From: Bernardetia sp.
Lineage (GTDB): Bacteria > Bacteroidota > Bacteroidia > Cytophagales > Bernardetiaceae
Reading direction: 5' to 3'
DNA length: 49,529 nucleotides
Assembly (NCBI RefSeq): GCF_020630935.1
Contig: NZ_JAHDIG010000005.1
Coordinates: forward strand, 64,001 to 113,529
The translations under genes and the position numbers were made by a program. The number at the start of each line of letters is the position of its first letter. The stretch's first letter is position 1. Below, one piece after another: positions 9,773 to 45,415 of this stretch. The notes under the pieces were generated by a model. The model ran no database searches, was not told the DNA's origin, and worked only from the letters and a program-made list of their open reading frames with translations.

Positions 9773-10112
9773 CAACGAAATATCCGATTGGACAGAGATG
9801 AAAGATTTTTTGTTGGAGGAAATTACAAGAGAAGAAGCAATGAGCCAATTTCCAACAAAGAAAAATAAGGTTGAGAGCTTTATGGAATACAGAGAAAACT
9901 GTGAAAAGGACAAATGGCAAACTTTGTACGGTTGTACGTGTGGTGATTCAGGTTGTAGTGGTTTGGGGACAATTATTACAAAAAAAGAAGATTCTTATAT
10001 CTGGACTTTTGGAGAGGAAGAGAATGAACTACAATTTATATTTGAGGAAAGTCAGTACCGTATGGCTTTTCAAAAGGCTTTGAAAGAAATTCATTCAAAG
10101 TTAAAAAGTTGA
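9660..10112 (+). CDS. Hypothetical protein with a Cys-rich CTCGDSGCSG segment
   Basis: 150-aa ORF. An in-frame stop at 9645-9647 precedes the ATG. The heptamer repeat immediately upstream mirrors the arrangement in front of hflX. Confidence 0.45.
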   Translation: MSIMWMENPYIGIYPNTIGSRKSLIKTLVMIGWIGAFDNEISDWTEMKDFLLEEITREEAMSQFPTKKNKVESFMEYRENCEKDKWQTLYGCTCGDSGCSGLGTIITKKEDSYIWTFGEEENELQFIFEESQYRMAFQKALKEIHSKLKS

Positions 10113-11602: not shown

Positions 11603-13447
11603 ATGAGTCAGCCCAAATCTAAAGAAGAACTAAGAGAACATTTAAAAGATATTATTAGAAATATTCCTCGCCAACCTGGAATTTATAAGTACAAAGACGA
11701 AAATGGAGAAGTCATTTATGTAGGGAAGGCAAAGGAACTGCGTAAACGTGTGTCTAGTTATTTTACTAAGTCGCATCAATACGACCGAAAAACTCGCCAG
11801 TTGGTGCGTGAGATTAGAAATATTGAAATTACGATTGTAGATAGCGAGGCCGATGCACTACTATTGGAAAATAATTTGATAAAAGCACATCAACCCAAAT
11901 ACAATATCTTATTAAAAGATGGAAAGTCATATCCTTATATCTGCATAACAGACGAACCTTTCCCTAGAGTTTTTTCTACAAGAAATCCGAATAGAAATCA
12001 AGGGACGAATTATGGACCTTATACGAATGGAAAAACGCTTTATGCACTCAACGAACTTATCAAAAAACTCTATACTATTCGAACGTGCTACTATAATTTG
12101 AGTGAAGAGAATATAAAATCTGGAAAGTATAAGGTTTGTTTAGAATATCATATCAAAAACTGTAAAGGTCCTTGTGAGGGCTTGCAAAGCGAGGAAGATT
12201 ATTTAAAAGACATTGAGCAGATTCGAAATATTTTAGCAGGAAAAACAAGCAAAGCAAAAGAGTATTTCAAAGAAAAAATGAAAACGGCAGCCGAAAAAAT
12301 GGAATTTGAAGAGGCTCAAAAGGCAAAAGAAAAATGGGAAGCTCTGCACACGTATCAAAGTAAATCACTCATCACGAATCCAAATATTTCAGATACGGAA
12401 GTGATTGCGCTTTTGGAAGACGATGCGAATGTATATGTAAATTATCTCAAAATTGAAGATGGAAGTATTGTTTATACAGCCAATGAATCGTATAAAAAAC
12501 GTCTTGAAGAAACGTTAGAAGATATTTTGCCAATGGTTGCCGTAGAGTTTAGGCAGCGTTTTGGAAGTGAGGCGCAGCGAATTGTGAGTAATGTAGAGGC
12601 AGAAGTGCCATTGCCGAAAGTAGAAATTGTCAATCCAAAAATAGGAGATTTGAGAAAATTATTAGACCTATCCATCAAAAATGTAACCTATTTCAAAAAG
12701 GAAAGATTACGCAAAAAGTTAGATTTTGCAGAACGCAAACAAGAAAAAGGACTAGCAGCCGTAGAAGCACTGCAAAAAGATTTAGGTTTGAAAGAATTAC
12801 CTCTGCACGTAGAGTGTTTTGATAATTCTAACTTGCAGGGTACAAATCCAGTTTCTTCGATGGTTTGTTTTATGAATGGAAAACCATCTAAACGAAATTA
12901 TAGAAAATATCACGTCAAGACGGTGGAGGGAGCGAATGATTTTGCCACAATGTATGAGGTGGTGTATCGTCGTTATAGAAGGCTTTTAGAAGAAAAACAG
13001 CCATTGCCAAATCTAGTCATTGTTGATGGAGGAAAAGGGCAGCTAAGTTTTGGAGCGCAGGCACTCAAAGATTTAGATATTTATGGAAAAGTGCCGATTG
13101 TCGGTATTGCCAAGCGTTTGGAAGAAGTCTTTTATCCAGAAGACCAACATCCTATTTATATCAATAAAAAATCGCCTTCCTTGAAGCTTATTCAGCATCT
13201 TCGCAATGAAGCCCACCGTTTTGCCATTACCTTCCACAGAGATGTTAGAAGTAAAAATGCCCTTCGAAACCCACTAGAAAACGTAAAAGGAGTAGGAAAG
13301 GCAACTATTGAGAAACTGCTTTTAGAATATAAGTCTATTAAGAAAATTGCAAAAACACCAGATGCAGAGCTAAAGGAACTCATCGGTGCAAATCGTACTC
13401 GCTTGATTAAAGACTACATCAAAAATAATCCTGATTTGTTGAGTTAG
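11603..13447 (+). CDS. uvrC: Excinuclease ABC subunit C
   Basis: 614 aa with an N-terminal GIY-YIG motif (GIYKYKDENGEVIYVGKA), a UvrBC-interaction region and C-terminal RNaseH-like/HhH domains. Confidence 0.85.
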   Translation: MSQPKSKEELREHLKDIIRNIPRQPGIYKYKDENGEVIYVGKAKELRKRVSSYFTKSHQYDRKTRQLVREIRNIEITIVDSEADALLLENNLIKAHQPKYNILLKDGKSYPYICITDEPFPRVFSTRNPNRNQGTNYGPYTNGKTLYALNELIKKLYTIRTCYYNLSEENIKSGKYKVCLEYHIKNCKGPCEGLQSEEDYLKDIEQIRNILAGKTSKAKEYFKEKMKTAAEKMEFEEAQKAKEKWEALHTYQSKSLITNPNISDTEVIALLEDDANVYVNYLKIEDGSIVYTANESYKKRLEETLEDILPMVAVEFRQRFGSEAQRIVSNVEAEVPLPKVEIVNPKIGDLRKLLDLSIKNVTYFKKERLRKKLDFAERKQEKGLAAVEALQKDLGLKELPLHVECFDNSNLQGTNPVSSMVCFMNGKPSKRNYRKYHVKTVEGANDFATMYEVVYRRYRRLLEEKQPLPNLVIVDGGKGQLSFGAQALKDLDIYGKVPIVGIAKRLEEVFYPEDQHPIYINKKSPSLKLIQHLRNEAHRFAITFHRDVRSKNALRNPLENVKGVGKATIEKLLLEYKSIKKIAKTPDAELKELIGANRTRLIKDYIKNNPDLLS

Positions 13448-28611: not shown

Positions 28612-28683
28612 AGCCAACGATGGGAATTGAACCCACGACCTCTTCCTTACCAAGGAAGCGCTCTACCCCTGAGCTACATCGGC
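28612..28683 (-). tRNA. tRNA-Thr (anticodon GGT)
   Basis: Cloverleaf read by hand: GCCGATGTAGCTCAGGGGTAGAGCGCTTCCTTGGTAAGGAAGAGGTCGTGGGTTCAATTCCCATCGTTGGCT. Both the T-arm GTGGG-TTCAATT-CCCAT and the acceptor stem GCCGATG/CGTTGGC require G-U wobble pairs, and the anticodon loop is CTTGGTAAG. Confidence 0.85.
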
Positions 28684-28835
28684 TTATAGCACTATACAAA
28701 CTTTCCATACTCTATTATCTTTATTTAAAATTTTGAAAATTTTAAAATCAGAACATAGTGAAAAGTTTGTATTCAATTAGTGTTATCTAATGCTGCTATA
28801 AAAAATACCAATAGTTACGTATCAGATTATATTTG

Positions 28836-28908
28836 AGCGAGAGACGAGGCTCGAACCCGCGACCTACAGCTTGGAAGGCTGTCGCTCTACCAACTGAGCT
28901 ACTCTCGC
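28836..28908 (-). tRNA. tRNA-Gly (anticodon TCC)
   Basis: GCGAGAGTAGCTCAGTTGGTAGAGC...anticodon loop CTTCCAA...TTCGAGC T-loop, acceptor stem GCGAGAG/CTCTCGC. Confidence 0.85.
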
Positions 28909-29016
28909 TTATTAATTTAGATTGAAATTAAAATTAATTTCAAAATTTGGTTTTGTTTGATATGAATCAAATATTTATTCCTAATGAATAAATGATAGTT
29001 TAATGAAAACTATTTG

Positions 29017-29099
29017 TGGGGGGAGCAGGATTCGAACCTGCGAAGAAATTAATCAACGGATTTACAGTCCGTCCCAGTTGGCCGCTTTGGTATCCCCCC
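29017..29099 (-). tRNA. tRNA-Tyr (anticodon GTA), long variable arm
   Basis: GGGGGGATACCAAAGCGGCCAACTGGGACGGACTGTAAATCCGT...GCAGGTTCGAATCCTGCTCCCCCCA; type II tRNA with an 83-nt length. Confidence 0.85.
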
Positions 29100-40030: not shown

Positions 40031-40669
40031 GTGTCCTTTTTTGCTAAAACAAATTTACTGACTATGAATTACAAAGTGGAAATGGTAGAGCAGAGCGAAC
40101 AAATAAAAAGGTTTTATCTTTTAAAGAATGAAAGTTATCTAACTTTTAATGAAGTGTTTGAATTATGGCAAGCAGATGACAATTTTATTACTTTCTATAT
40201 AAATACTCTAATAAACTTTGATTACAAGGCTTTTCATTGGGAGCATCCCTGTTTGGAAGAACCTTTTTTGGATAAAAAATATGAATGTACAATAACAAAA
40301 AGTAAAAGACTAGAAGCAGCTTCTGTCAATGAAGAAGCATTCAAAGAACACATTTATACAAACGAATGTGTCATTGATTTTATGAATTTGGGCAAGAATG
40401 CAAGACTTATTATTCCCTCTAAAAAAACTGATAAAGAAGTGTATAATCACTTAGGAAAATTCATTAGGGCAGCTCCAAAAGAACAAATTATGGAAGTGTT
40501 CAAAAGAACTGGAAAGCTAGTAACAAAAGAAATTAAAGAAAATGGAAAAATTTGGCTCAATACGGCAGGTCTAGGAGTAATTTGGCTGCACATTAGACTA
40601 GATACAAAGCCTAAGTATTATAAAACAAGAAAATATAAAGACCCTAATTTTTTGAATACAATTGAATAA
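40031..40669 (+). CDS. Hypothetical protein, first gene of a two-gene cassette; conserved-looking C-terminal motif WLNTAGLGVIWLHIRLD
   Basis: 212 aa. I recognise no family. It is translationally coupled to the next ORF by an 8-bp overlap. Confidence 0.5.
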   Translation: MSFFAKTNLLTMNYKVEMVEQSEQIKRFYLLKNESYLTFNEVFELWQADDNFITFYINTLINFDYKAFHWEHPCLEEPFLDKKYECTITKSKRLEAASVNEEAFKEHIYTNECVIDFMNLGKNARLIIPSKKTDKEVYNHLGKFIRAAPKEQIMEVFKRTGKLVTKEIKENGKIWLNTAGLGVIWLHIRLDTKPKYYKTRKYKDPNFLNTIE

Positions 40670-41312
40670 TACACCTAAAGTCAATACTATATTTGACCTA
40701 ATTGAATTAAGACCTGCAATGTATCTTGGAAAAAATAGCATTACGCTAATGGATGTTTTCTTGACGGGATATAATTTTGCTTGTTATTCTAATGACATAA
40801 CACAACAAGAAACTTATCCTCTTTTTTGGTATTTTCATGAGTGGGCTATGGAAAAATATGGCTGGACAAGTTCGGTTGCAGGTTGGAAAAATATAATACT
40901 ACAAGGAAATGAATACGATGAAGCAAAGGCTTTAACTGTATTTTTTGAAATGATAGACGACTTTAAAAAACTTCGTCCTATTTCTTGTGAGTATGTAGAG
41001 TTAAATGAAAGAAATCTGAAATTTCATTATTCAGACTTGTGTAAAACAAAAAGATATAATTTTAGCTCAAAAATTCATCTGCCAGTATATGAAGAGGCTG
41101 ATGAGATATTAATAATAGAGCATTCTCATGACTTTGGTTATTCTATCTTTGTTACTCATCAAAACAGACTAATGGGCTATGATTGGAGGGAACGTTTTAA
41201 GAACTTGCAACAAGCTAAGTCACAGGTAAAACGTTTATTTAACACAAATGAAGAGCAATGGCAATTGTTTGAAGGAAATTTATTAGAAAAACTAAATGAT
41301 ATATTGAGATAA
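40662..41312 (+). CDS. Hypothetical protein, second gene of the cassette (TTG start overlapping the upstream stop)
   Basis: 216 aa. The start is TTG at 40662 (the track shows M). No family recognised. Confidence 0.45.
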   Translation: MNNTPKVNTIFDLIELRPAMYLGKNSITLMDVFLTGYNFACYSNDITQQETYPLFWYFHEWAMEKYGWTSSVAGWKNIILQGNEYDEAKALTVFFEMIDDFKKLRPISCEYVELNERNLKFHYSDLCKTKRYNFSSKIHLPVYEEADEILIIEHSHDFGYSIFVTHQNRLMGYDWRERFKNLQQAKSQVKRLFNTNEEQWQLFEGNLLEKLNDILR

Positions 41313-41341
41313 AACGTATTAATCTTCTAAAAAACAAAAAA

Positions 41342-41369
41342 AGCCATCCAAACTGGATAGCTTTTTTTA
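41342..41369. terminator. Bidirectional rho-independent terminator (AGCCATCCA-aact-TGGATAGCT + T7) shared by the cassette and convergent icd
   Basis: 9-bp stem with one mismatch, a T7 run downstream and an A-run upstream. Confidence 0.65.
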
Positions 41370-41397
41370 TACTTACAAAATGAAAAGACTAATATTT

Positions 41398-42852
41398 TTA
41401 TTGTCCTTGCCCTAGAGAGTAACCACGTTCTCCGTCGAAAGTACAAAGATTTTCTGTTTTGATGATGTCAAAACCTGCTTTATCTACTACATTCATCAGA
41501 GAAATAATATCTGAATTTTTGACAGGAGCTTCGCCATCTTTTTGGAAACGACAACGCCAGTGGTCTGTACAGAATGTTTCTTCAAAACCATTAGGATACA
41601 CTTTCAAACCACGATTAGTAACCATTTTGAGTTTCAAACCTTCATACTCACATTTTACAAGCGCATCACCTAAAACATTTGCATTTTTATTGCCATTTGC
41701 TTCTGTCCATTGTAAGAAAACATCTACCCCCACTACTTCTTTCTTAGCTTTCTTCGTAGAAACTGGTTTGGTAGCAATTTGCTTTCCTGTGTCATACGTT
41801 ACAGCATTAAGTTGAGTAGGCTTTTGTCCCATTCTCTCCACTACTGCATCTGCAAATTCTTTTGTACCTACTTTTTTAGTACTTGTTCCTTCTTTGAAAA
41901 TATCATACGTATGAACGCCGTCTTCCATTGTTTTGAGCCAAGCATTGTGTGCTTTCTCTGCTGCTTCTGGCTGACCGATATAAACAAGCATTTGGATTGC
42001 TCCTAATAATAATCCAGAAGGGTTAGCCATATTCTGACCTGCACGACGTGGCGCAGAACCGTGAATTGCCTCAAACATAGCAATTCCGTCTCCGATATTT
42101 GCCGAGCCAGCCAAACCAACAGAACCTGTGATTTGTGCAGCTACATCAGAAAGAACATCACCATAAAGGTTAGGCATTACGATAACGTCGAAGTTTTCTG
42201 GAGTATCAGCCATTTTTGCTGCTCCTATATCAATAATCCAATGTTCGTTTTCAATTTGAGGATATTCTGCTGCAATTTCATCAAAAACTTTGTGGAACAA
42301 GCCATCAGTAAGTTTCATGATGTTGTCTTTTGTAAAACAAGTTACTTTCTTACGACCATATGCTACTGCATATTCGAAAGCATAACGAACAATTTTCTCA
42401 CAACCAGGGCGAGAGATAAGTTTCAAACATTGTGTTACTTCGTCTGTCTGACGGTGTTCGATTCCTGCATACAAATCTTCCTCGTTCTCACGAATAATTA
42501 CCACGTCCATTTTAGGATGTTTTGTAGAAACATAAGGGTGGTAAGAGATACAAGGACGCACATTTGCGTATAAACCTAAAGTTTTGCGAGTAGTTACGTT
42601 CAAACTCTTAAAACCTCCACCTTGAGGAGTAGTGATAGGTGCTTTTAAGAAAACTTTCGTACGACGAAGAGAATCCCACGCTTCTGGTGCAATACCAGCT
42701 GAGTTTCCTTTCATATATACTTTCTCTCCGATTTCAATTTCTTCAATGTCAAGTTGTGCGCCAGCAGCTTCAATAATTTTGATAGTTGCGTCCATAATTT
42801 CAGGACCGATGCCATCGCCGTGTGCTACGGTAATTGGAGTTTTTACGCTCAT
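41398..42852 (-). CDS. icd: NADP-dependent isocitrate dehydrogenase
   Basis: 484 aa. The N-terminus PITVAHGDGIGPEIM and overall conservation match the beta-decarboxylating dehydrogenase family, with a C-terminal extension of about 70 aa. Confidence 0.85.
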   Translation of the reverse strand: MSVKTPITVAHGDGIGPEIMDATIKIIEAAGAQLDIEEIEIGEKVYMKGNSAGIAPEAWDSLRRTKVFLKAPITTPQGGGFKSLNVTTRKTLGLYANVRPCISYHPYVSTKHPKMDVVIIRENEEDLYAGIEHRQTDEVTQCLKLISRPGCEKIVRYAFEYAVAYGRKKVTCFTKDNIMKLTDGLFHKVFDEIAAEYPQIENEHWIIDIGAAKMADTPENFDVIVMPNLYGDVLSDVAAQITGSVGLAGSANIGDGIAMFEAIHGSAPRRAGQNMANPSGLLLGAIQMLVYIGQPEAAEKAHNAWLKTMEDGVHTYDIFKEGTSTKKVGTKEFADAVVERMGQKPTQLNAVTYDTGKQIATKPVSTKKAKKEVVGVDVFLQWTEANGNKNANVLGDALVKCEYEGLKLKMVTNRGLKVYPNGFEETFCTDHWRCRFQKDGEAPVKNSDIISLMNVVDKAGFDIIKTENLCTFDGERGYSLGQGQ

Positions 42853-42986
42853 GTGTAGTTAGGGTTTATTGGTTAGTAAAAAAAATGATATTTTTTTATG
42901 CAATCGTAAAGATAGTATTTTTTGATATTTATTCCGATTTCTGGGTGTATGACAAATTTTCCTGTTTATAAAACATTCAATATTTC

Positions 42987-43205
42987 GTTGCTCTGCAACT
43001 CTACTTTTTTCTGTACTTTGTTTTATTCTACCAACAGAACGTTGCTCTGCAACTTGTGTTGTAGTAAGGGTAGAAACGCCAGCTACTTTAAGCAGAAAGC
43101 TAATAAAAAAGTGTTTTTTGTAAAAAAAAGCATAGAAAAAGTTGCAGCGCAACCTCATATTTGTAGAATGGATTATCATAATTTCTTTGGGAGTTGCAGC
43201 GCAAC
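42987..43205. promoter_or_regulatory. Cluster of four 15-bp palindromic sites, consensus CGTTGCKCTGCAACT (core GTTGC-N3-GCAAC): 42987-42999 and 43041-43053 forward, 43141-43153 and 43193-43205 reverse; spacing 54/100/52 bp
   Basis: Read directly. The sites lie in the 740-bp divergent icd/acyl-CoA dehydrogenase intergenic region. Confidence 0.5.
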
Positions 43206-43591
43206 GAAATGTAAAGGATATTTTTTTGCTATACAACAAAAAGAGATTTTTGTCGTACACCCCCAATTTCTTACTGCTTCAAAACCATCCCACTTTCAAC
43301 TGACCTAAAGTCATTGCAATGATTTTTAAAAATATCATTTGATTCTATCAAAAAAATAATTTCTACCTAGTTTTTATTTGCTTAGAAAGAAGGCTGACAA
43401 AATTAATTCATAATTTTTTAAAAAAATATCGATTTTTTTCCAACATTATTCGTCGTGCATACGTTTATTTTACTAAATTTGTCAGAATGGTATGCAAGCA
43501 TACAAAAAAATATTTCCAATAATAACTAACTATTTGAAATACAGTTAGTTGTGGTAAGAAAATCAAATCAAAACATCTAAATAAAAAATAT

Positions 43592-45415
43592 ATGTCAAAC
43601 GTAGCAGAACAAGAAGCGTTGAAAGAAGCCCTAAGAGGAGGCGAATTTTTAATTAAAGAATCTTCAGCAGATGATATTTTTATCCCTGAAGAATTTTCTG
43701 AAGAGCAGCAGATGATGGCAAAAGCCACTGATGACTTTGTAAATATGGAAATTACTCCTATTGCAGAGAAAATTGATAAAATGCAAGACCCAGAGCTTAT
43801 GCCTTCACTTCTTACTAAGGCTGGCGAACTTGGTCTTTTGGGGATTGGTGTACCAGAAGATTTAGACGGACTTGGAATGAGCTTCAACACAACTATGCTT
43901 ATTGCAGATGTTGTAGGTTCAGCAGGCTCTTTCTCAACAGCTTACGGAGCGCACACAGGAATCGGAACACTTCCAATTTTGTATTATGGCAACGAAGAGC
44001 AAAAGAAAAAATATATTCCTAAACTAGCTACTGGTGAGTGGAAAGCGTGTTACTGTTTGACAGAGCCAGATGCAGGCTCGGATGCAAACTCTGGAAAAAC
44101 TAAGGCAGTTTTGTCAGAAGATGGAAAATATTATTCTATCACTGGACAGAAAATGTGGATAACAAACGGTGGTTTTGCTGATGTATTTATTGTATTTGCT
44201 CGTATTGAAGACGATAAAAACCTTACAGCATTCATCGTAGAGCGTAATTATAACGGAATTACAATGAACGAAGAAGAGCAAAAACTAGGCATCAAAGGTT
44301 CTTCTACTCGTCAGATATTCTTCAACGATACAAAAGTTCCTGTTGAGAATATGCTTTCAGAGCGTGGTAATGGTTTCAAAATCGCTGTAAATATTCTTAA
44401 CATCGGTCGTATCAAATTGGGTGCTGGCGTATTGAATGGTTGTCGCCAAGTGATTCGTTATTCTGTTCGTTATGGAAATGAGCGTAAGCAGTTTAATACT
44501 CCAATTTCTTCTTTTGGAGCAATCAAGTATAAATTAGCTGAAATGACTGCTCGTAACTATGCGACAGAATCGTTGTGTTATGCAGCAGGTCAAGATATTG
44601 ACGACCGTATTACATATTTGCGTAAGTCAGGTATGGATGCAGCAGAATCTAAGCTCAAAGGTGTAGAAGAATTTGCCATTGAGTGTGCGATTGCTAAAGT
44701 ACACGGTTCTGAAACATTAGATTACTGTGTAGATGAAGGCGTACAGATTTATGGTGGTATGGGATTCTCTGAAGATGCTCCTATGGCTCGTGCGTATCGT
44801 GATGCACGTATTGCACGTATTTATGAAGGTACGAACGAAATTAACCGTATGCTTTTGGTAGGAATGATTTTACGTCGTGCTATGAAAGGCGATTTGGATG
44901 TTCTTTCACATGCAAAAGCAGTAGGAAAAGAACTTCTTCAAATGCCTGCACCAGCAAATATTGACCGTACACAACCATTTGCAGCAGAAAAAGAACTTAT
45001 TTCTCGTATGAAGAAAGCTGTTTTGATGGTAGCAGGAAAAGCTGCTCAAACATTTGGTCCAAAACTTAATGATGAGCAAATTCTTTTGATGGCTGTTGCT
45101 GATATGATTATTGAAGTATATGCAGCAGAAACGTCTATTATGCGTGCTGAAAAATTAGTTCGTCAGCATGGAGAAAGTGTAGATGGAATCAAAGCTAAAT
45201 TGGCGAAACTTTATCTTCAATTAGCTGTAAACAAGTTAGAGCAAAAAGGACGTGAAGCGATTTCTTGTTTCTCTAAAGGCGATGAGATGCGTGTTCTTTT
45301 GATGGGCTTGAAGCGTTTTACTAAGCACGAGCCAATCAATCAGCGTGAACTTCGCCACGAAATTGCAGACCACATGATTGAGAAAAATGATTATGCGTAT
45401 AAACTTTGGGCGTAA
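43592..45415 (+). CDS. Acyl-CoA dehydrogenase (long FadE-like form)
   Basis: 607 aa with CLTEPDAGSDA, ACAD middle and C-terminal domains, and an extended C-terminal region. Confidence 0.8.
   Translation: MSNVAEQEALKEALRGGEFLIKESSADDIFIPEEFSEEQQMMAKATDDFVNMEITPIAEKIDKMQDPELMPSLLTKAGELGLLGIGVPEDLDGLGMSFNTTMLIADVVGSAGSFSTAYGAHTGIGTLPILYYGNEEQKKKYIPKLATGEWKACYCLTEPDAGSDANSGKTKAVLSEDGKYYSITGQKMWITNGGFADVFIVFARIEDDKNLTAFIVERNYNGITMNEEEQKLGIKGSSTRQIFFNDTKVPVENMLSERGNGFKIAVNILNIGRIKLGAGVLNGCRQVIRYSVRYGNERKQFNTPISSFGAIKYKLAEMTARNYATESLCYAAGQDIDDRITYLRKSGMDAAESKLKGVEEFAIECAIAKVHGSETLDYCVDEGVQIYGGMGFSEDAPMARAYRDARIARIYEGTNEINRMLLVGMILRRAMKGDLDVLSHAKAVGKELLQMPAPANIDRTQPFAAEKELISRMKKAVLMVAGKAAQTFGPKLNDEQILLMAVADMIIEVYAAETSIMRAEKLVRQHGESVDGIKAKLAKLYLQLAVNKLEQKGREAISCFSKGDEMRVLLMGLKRFTKHEPINQRELRHEIADHMIEKNDYAYKLWA

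Follow-up and report, generated by a model that had tools for sequence, protein, structure and literature searches.

Short hairpins associated with Y1 transposases are well known from REP, REPIN and RAYT systems and from IS200/IS605 elements. In REP systems, short extragenic hairpins, including inverted pairs that fold into a longer hairpin (REPINs), flank a low-copy Y1 HUH gene and also occur elsewhere as gene-less copies, and the repeat sequence varies by transposase lineage. One criterion for a REP is a GTAG-type tetranucleotide 0-2 nt 5' of the palindrome (PMC8266576), another is dispersal in tens to hundreds of copies per genome, and the REP/RAYT transposase is of class 2 (TnpA_REP). IS200/IS605 elements (e.g., IS608 and ISDra2) combine a Y1 transposase with subterminal hairpins near a conserved short sequence; ends of the IS608 type have the same orientation on one strand, and IS elements occur as near-identical multiple copies. 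Among REPtrons, the closest to the system described here is the Marinomonas REPtron Mb, in which REPs with 5-bp stems are concentrated near tnpA (PMC8266576; PMC3116915). A further group of Y1 HUH proteins, subclass 1.2, has the signature Y---Q--HH and has been described as generally without typical flanking secondary structures (Quentin et al., 2018; PMC6006769). No REP-like module specific to subclass 1.2 was found in the literature searched.

The locus compared with these systems lies in a 49.5-kb stretch of Bernardetia DNA, referred to below as the window, and consists of four short palindromes between two divergent genes. The reading preferred here, with a probability of about 0.7, is that the quartet is a gene-less, inverted pair of modules from a family that accompanies subclass-1.2 IS200-like tnpA genes, i.e., a non-autonomous REPIN-like copy.

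Anatomy of the palindrome quartet

The two genes are icd on the minus strand (41398-42852; 484 aa, with Iso_dh and Isocitrate_DH_C_bact domains) and an acyl-CoA dehydrogenase gene on the plus strand (43592-45415; 607 aa), whose product matches WP_291721589.1 of Bernardetia sp. (Cytophagales) at 100% identity and those of relatives at 88-95%. The gap between the two genes measures 739 bp, in line with the 740 bp given by an earlier sequence-only reading of this DNA. It holds the only four sites of the form GTTGC-N3-GCAAC (GTTGCNNNGCAAC) in the window, starting at 42987, 43041, 43141 and 43193, where 0.01 would be expected; none of 100 shuffles reached four. Copies 1 and 2 are forward (CGTTGCTCTGCAACT) and copies 3 and 4 reverse, with the loop GCT, so that the region 42987-43205, with spacings of 54, 100 and 52, is symmetric about a centre near 43096. 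The 15-mer CGTTGCKCTGCAACT is exact in three copies; in copy 3 its first C is replaced by G. The sequence-only reading had described this symmetric arrangement of two copies per orientation with the same spacings, and all the facts it stated were verified.

The symmetry goes beyond that description, as three nested pairs of inverted repeats span 42943-43262. The outermost pair (I5; 25 nt, 76%) forms the left and right arms of a large imperfect palindrome (42943-42967 and 43238-43262, both annotated on the plus strand), which are paired in the DNA fold. The second pair (I6) joins 42982-43001 to 43191-43210 with 95% complementarity over 20 nt. Its left part is the outer hairpin unit of the left half-module, ATTTC-GTTGCTCTGCAAC-TC (42982-43001, plus strand; copy 1 at 42987-42999), and its right part covers the outer hairpin unit of the right half-module, GTTGCAGCGCAAC-GAAAT (43193-43210, plus strand; copy 4 at 43193-43205). 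The innermost pair (43025-43055/43139-43169; 31 nt, 81%) covers the two inner units. On the left (43026-43053, minus strand), hairpin copy 2 (43041-43053) is followed by GT and the box TCTGTTGGTAGAA (43026-43038); on the right (43141-43168, plus strand), hairpin copy 3 (43141-43153) is followed by CTC and the box ATATTTGTAGAA (43157-43168). An A/T-rich centre of 87 nt (43054-43140) separates the half-modules.

Alignment of six half-elements, from the window and from two metagenomic relatives (L158 and L170), defined the repeating unit, and the quartet is two inverted copies of this two-hairpin module of about 75 nt, with H on the right and its reverse complement H' on the left (H'-87 nt-H). 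Module H comprises a hairpin with a 5-bp stem and a 3-nt loop (GTTGC-KCT-GCAAC in the window), 3 nt, a box T-N-TTKGTAG-N-A (ATATTTGTAGAA in that alignment), about 24 to 25 nt, a second hairpin of the same stem, and a G. Two mirror ORFs over the element (42859-43266, minus strand, and 42922-43308, plus strand) have no Pfam match and were rejected as by-products of the palindrome. Whereas a classical MITE has terminal inverted repeats and a target-site duplication, the window element has inverted arms; ATTTC is found at both of its edges (about 42937-42941 and 43267-43271), which makes a duplication possible but is weak evidence for one, since the match is A/T-rich and, at only 5 nt, too short to count.

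Folding of a single strand as RNA (42970-43225) yields one long hairpin (z = -6.4 for the plus strand and -4.8 for the minus strand), as does folding of 42940-43265 as DNA (z = -6.3). This strong predicted fold on both strands would suit an element acting as RNA, whose transcribed hairpins or foldback of about 230 nt would serve as a terminator, insulator, stabiliser or small RNA, like some REPs. The hairpin covariation described below fits RNA equally, and in three of the related loci (L158, L170 and L200) a stem of about 19 bp arises from the two central hairpins, with a U-rich run after it. An RNA-level role is nevertheless improbable: no Rfam family matches the element at the gathering threshold or at E up to 1 (one chance-level match lies outside it), single stems are just 5 bp, the element is upstream of both neighbours and not at a 3' end, and its consistent partner is the gene of a DNA transposase. 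Three minus-strand tRNA genes at 28612-29099 are the only Rfam matches above the gathering threshold in the window.

Orthologous loci in relatives

The dehydrogenase locus was compared in five relatives (L122, L123, L124, L126 and L127) and the icd locus in L129, L131, L133-L136 and Bernardetia sp. Wsw4-3y2. None of the five has a counterpart of 42935-43297 upstream of the dehydrogenase gene, none of the latter has one upstream of icd, and the loci fetched contain no GTTGC-N3-GCAAC site. The icd and dehydrogenase genes each retain a separate conserved upstream block on either side of the element. In BLAST comparisons, homology on the icd side ends at 42934 (conserved block 42853-42934) and that on the dehydrogenase side begins at 43298, which leaves a lineage-specific segment of 363 bp (42935-43297) holding the whole element. 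A Logan contig that is 100% identical to the window (L121) starts at 43291, the edge of this unique segment.

These comparisons bear on the proposal of the sequence-only reading that the palindromes are an operator array, bound by a dimeric or tetrameric looping factor that controls one or both of the divergent icd and acyl-CoA dehydrogenase genes. The quartet does resemble operator arrays at divergent promoters, with dyad-symmetric sites clustered far beyond chance, a spacing of 52-54 bp that approximates five helical turns, a position between divergent genes, and a box by the inner palindromes that is similar to the Bacteroidota -7 box TAnnTTTG. However, operator sites would be kept at orthologous promoters, and absence of the motif from the corresponding regions of relatives, which that reading had itself named as evidence against an operator, is what was found at all icd and dehydrogenase upstream regions examined. 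A separate conserved block remains upstream of each gene, and that of the dehydrogenase gene includes its own conserved palindrome (GTATGCAAGCATAC). Furthermore, the same module adjoins transposase genes, nqrA, Uma2 genes and a thiolase gene, its stem bases differ between lineages and covary, and no gene adjacent to the quartet encodes a regulator. An operator array is therefore very unlikely.

The dehydrogenase upstream block, which is conserved in all Bernardetia examined, contains a -7-like TAAATTTG (43474-43481) bracketed by GTGCATAC (43455-43462) and by the palindrome GTATGCAAGCATAC (43490-43503). As a candidate operator of the dehydrogenase gene, this site is preferable to the quartet. 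The blocks of relatives have an additional GTATGCAAATTCATAC further downstream, which the window lacks.

The neighbours of icd differ in every Bernardetia relative fetched. Two relatives share left-hand synteny with the window (glycosyltransferase to purL), and in both the interval from purL to the dehydrogenase gene lacks the block 40043-43297, i.e., the DUF6940 gene, a 216-aa ORF, icd and the element. As the interval differs in both, 40043-43297 is specific to the lineage of the window. The purL-dehydrogenase interval is a variable hot spot, with the DUF6940 gene, the 216-aa ORF and icd here, genes for a PemK toxin, a Bro-N protein and an acetyltransferase in one relative (L126:7349-9610), and about 0.5 kb of non-coding DNA in another (L127:9077-9585). 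In L131, where Icd shows 90% identity, icd lies between two direct repeats of 80 nt (9824-9903 and 11608-11687; 86% identical). At the end of each is GTTCCGTAGGAAC-ttt-ATATTGGTAGAA, one hairpin plus box with a different stem type. This unit also lies about 1.8 kb upstream of the dehydrogenase gene in B. litoralis (L124:8163).

Related modules beside transposase genes and elsewhere

A plasmid BLAST search with the element matched one record, the 600-kb replicon of Bernardetia sp. Wsw4-3y2, in which 33 bp separate a quartet from the start of an IS200/IS605-family tnpA gene (156 aa). This protein scores 94 bits against Pfam Y1_Tnp and 75.5 bits against NF033573 (cut-off 55), and 41 bits, below the cut-off of 80, against the model for REP-associated tyrosine transposases (NF047646). 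A scan of 600,000 of the 601,782 bp (all except the last 1.8 kb) found this one quartet and one stray intragenic match. The replicon has a second tnpA, 78% identical to the first, with inverted H-like modules on both sides (stems GCTGC...GCTGC, same box GTAATATTTGTAGAA); the order TerC-tnpA-ABC and the flanking modules are common to this second tnpA and strain ABR2-2B.

A closer link to the window is given by L213, which contains the tnpA gene for WP_291720916.1 (88% identical to the first Wsw4-3y2 tnpA). The run that produced L213 also gave a contig 100% identical to part of the window, and the protein shares a taxid with the protein of the window. This places a cognate tnpA in the sequencing run and taxid of the window; the link consists of this shared SRA run and taxid, on separate contigs. 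Upstream of this tnpA are, in order, ATTTCGTTGCGATGCAACTC, CTACAAACAGGACGTTGCGATGCAACT, 29 nt, AGTTGCAGAGCAAC-aag-ATATTTGTAGAA and AGTTGCAGAGCAACG, i.e., forward, forward, reverse and reverse, as in the window, with near-identical flanks. The 20-mer at 42982-43001 recurs there except for its loop, the left inner unit of the window (43026-43053) matches CTACAAACAGGACGTTGCGATGCAACT, and the 29 nt are the equivalent of the 87-nt centre.

In Flavobacterium, a tnpA 66% identical is arranged as H-tnpA-H'-29 nt-H, again with a 29-nt centre, with stems GCCTC/GAGGC and GCTCC/GGAGC and the box CTGTTTGTAGAA. It lies with its modules between a fadB-like gene and a thiolase gene (L215:1423-2182), at the same place in 16 contigs, and one module is 34 nt from the thiolase start. 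The occurrence of modules before a beta-oxidation gene in both Flavobacterium and the window may be coincidence. More distant homologues (40-42% identical), in a Pirellulaceae genome and on a Persicobacter plasmid, have inverted, looser hairpin arrays on both sides, the Pirellulaceae array including AGTTGCGAAGCAAC. Hairpins of these loci (L079:2040-2860 and L218:380-1040) include, e.g., AGTYGCGAAGCRAC and CGATGGGT-N4-ACCCATCG. These arrays are REPtron-like, in lineages without an earlier report for subclass 1.2.

The associated TnpA proteins share the HUH motif (DHxH), WQ, the Y motif Y---Q--HH and a conserved C-terminal tail. They form a family of about 153 aa with 63-70% identity across Bacteroidota, mostly with one contig per cluster. 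Signature, WQ, length, tail, low copy number and distribution in Bacteroidota all agree with subclass 1.2 (PMC6006769). In contrast to that description, conserved hairpin modules flank the subclass-1.2 gene in Bernardetia and Flavobacterium, and hairpin arrays do so in Persicobacter and the Pirellulaceae genome. The modules of the window are homologous to those adjoining subclass-1.2 tnpA genes.

Gene-less copies also occur, in contexts unrelated to icd or fatty-acid genes. A metagenome scan with a K-loop pair pattern returned 61 loci, among which only L158 and L170 are true relatives. Each has four copies, spaced 51/56/52-54 and arranged H-43 nt-H'; nqrA lies about 0.9 kb downstream of the quartet in L158, and that in L170 lies between Uma2 genes, with GmrSD-like genes nearby. 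Single modules with other stems and without tnpA occur in L126 and L134. Another candidate, L192, was rejected as it is actually a 19-bp tandem satellite. No GTTGC-type quartet occurs in about 210 kb of other relatives' loci; the tally for this type is one in the 600-kb Wsw4-3y2 replicon and one in the 49.5-kb window, and module loci of all stem types number roughly ten in about 860 kb of Bernardetia-lineage DNA.

A scan of species genomes for GTTGCNNNGCAAC-N(30-60)-GTTGCNNNGCAAC gave only unrelated repeats among the matches listed, namely REP-like extended palindromes, tandem repeats and CRISPR arrays from many phyla. The pair pattern is too generic because its core tips many unrelated REP-like and CRISPR repeats. 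Such GTTGC-N3-GCAAC tips occur in unrelated repeat families of other phyla (L001-L120 and L137-L199; e.g., L151, L004, L096 and L059), for example as GTAGGCCGGTTGCGCTGCAACCGGCCTAC in high-GC contigs, as AGAGACGTTGCAMTGCAACGTCTCT in inverted doublets of Saprospiraceae and others, and in CRISPR-like arrays of a Methanoperedenaceae genome; many of these repeats contain a stable mini-hairpin of the GCGAAGC type. Two viral pattern scans revealed no relative of the element (one pattern matched nothing and the other matched only two unrelated repeats), nor did a phage BLAST search, and a literature search for the motif strings found only unrelated primer sequences.

Two mirror arrangements of the half-modules occur: the window, L213 and Flavobacterium have H'-centre-H, and L158, L170 and L200 have H-centre-H'. 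Mirror arrangements in different genomes, together with promoter-like boxes enclosed by nested inverted repeats, might point to an invertible promoter switch, in which the repeats are invertase sites flipping a promoter-bearing segment. This is most improbable, given that one inversion does not interconvert the two arrangements, that the annotated flanking genes include no recombinase, and that the consistent partner gene encodes a Y1 transposase, not an invertase.

Pairing, box and origin of the window copy

Covariation was assessed in an alignment of 18 modules with six stem types. Pairing holds in 96.7% of cells across both hairpins, and five of the ten stem pairs change on both sides (T-A to C-G; G-C to T-A, A-T or C-G). 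The covariation score of 0.452 compares with 0.173 after shuffling, none of 500 shuffles equalled it, and slid controls reached at most 0.15. Lineages thus differ in stem bases while compensating changes keep the pairing, and the box is unchanged. The same loop is usual in both hairpins of a half-module (AGC/AGC, AGA/AGA, ATC/ATC; e.g., L202:3750-3930 vs L210:28340-29035), and stem type differs from one tnpA paralogue to the next, which suggests that the hairpins evolve in concert with their transposase.

Invariant or nearly so in the 18 modules are the first G, the closing C-G pair and the box T-N-TTKGTAG-N-A, with conserved positions T21, T23, T24, G26, T27, A28, G29 and A31. The box overlaps the Bacteroidota sigma-A -7 consensus TAnnTTTG (PMC9723704); the boxes of the window face outward with a partial likeness to it, and near-matches on the Wsw4-3y2 plasmid are often upstream of genes. 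A plain -7 element was rejected as the sole explanation, since the TA is present in just 4 of the 18 modules and GTAG follows TTTG in all. On the model of REPs, with their GTAG, and of IS608, with its guide tetranucleotides (PMC8266576), the box probably serves mainly in recognition, in cleavage or as a guide, and its pattern of conservation suits recognition better than a plain promoter.

With REP/REPIN-RAYT systems the modules share the short extragenic hairpins in inverted pairs that form a longer one, the position around a low-copy Y1 HUH gene, the gene-less copies and the variation of the repeat with transposase lineage, and their GTAG tetranucleotide is invariant. With IS200/IS605 elements and their miniature derivatives they share the Y1 transposase and the hairpins near a short conserved sequence with a putative cleavage or guide role, and the H-centre-H' quartets resemble an H-tnpA-H' unit minus the gene. 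The sequence-only reading had named a REP-like repeat family as its alternative, which comes close, although the copy number in the DNA covered is low and not in the hundreds that it associated with such a family. This low copy number counts against a REPIN-like copy, and several other features do so as well. In canonical REPs, GTAG immediately precedes the stem on its 5' side; here it follows hairpin 1 at about 10 nt on the 3' side and precedes hairpin 2 by about 28 nt. The ends of IS608-type elements lie on the same strand, but the modules around tnpA are inverted. Compensatory change in a palindrome would also be expected from a co-evolving dimeric protein that binds double-stranded DNA, and the family has two arrangements, H'-centre-H and H-centre-H'. 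The unit also differs from REPs and REPINs in having two hairpins and a 12-nt box and from class 2 systems in its subclass-1.2 transposase. Its tnpA paralogues in Wsw4-3y2, only 78% identical and one of them syntenic with ABR2-2B, differ from the near-identical copies of IS elements.

If the quartet is a REPIN-like copy accompanying subclass-1.2 tnpA, its hairpins would form on single-stranded DNA and be bound by a dimer of the transposase, as for IS608/ISDra2 and REP/RAYT. The window itself has no tnpA; the likely source of the transposase is WP_291720916.1, presumably encoded elsewhere in the same genome. Cleavage would occur in or near the invariant GTAG box, acting as a cleavage or guide element as in those systems. 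We infer that the element is mobile: the window copy may have transposed in, or may have come along with the rearrangement that joined icd to the dehydrogenase gene. It would then lie at the junction made when icd moved beside that gene, and H'-H is the expected look of a junction between two H-X-H' units or of a circle junction. The copy may be a fossil, possibly inert now, and any effect on icd or the dehydrogenase gene would be a side effect.

Implications for subclass 1.2 and for Bernardetia

The module linked to subclass 1.2 thus has two hairpins of 5 bp and a GTAG box of 12 nt, flanks tnpA as inverted copies and is low in copy number. The finding removes a false lead, as there is no new icd or fatty-acid regulon at this locus, and it points out GTATGCAAGCATAC (43490-43503) as a better place to look for a dehydrogenase operator. 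Its interest is for mobile-element specialists and not as a regulon lead. Subclass-1.2 IS200-like proteins, described as having no DNA partner, gain a concrete candidate partner, and if the hairpin plus GTAG box is the substrate, recognition of very short hairpins by a (semi-)domesticated single-strand transposase becomes testable.

A wider proposal, tentative and rather doubtful at present, is that subclass-1.2 Y1 proteins and the two-hairpin/GTAG-box module form a distinct REPtron-like system from Bacteroidota to Planctomycetota, missed earlier on account of its 5-bp, lineage-variable stems, whose modules would act as portable cassettes that reshape promoters and shuffle genes locally. It is prompted by modules that precede a thiolase gene in Flavobacterium and the acyl-CoA dehydrogenase gene in the window, and by the movement of icd between Bernardetia genomes. 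The finding also raises the question of whether these modules contribute to the heavy gene shuffling between Bernardetia genomes.
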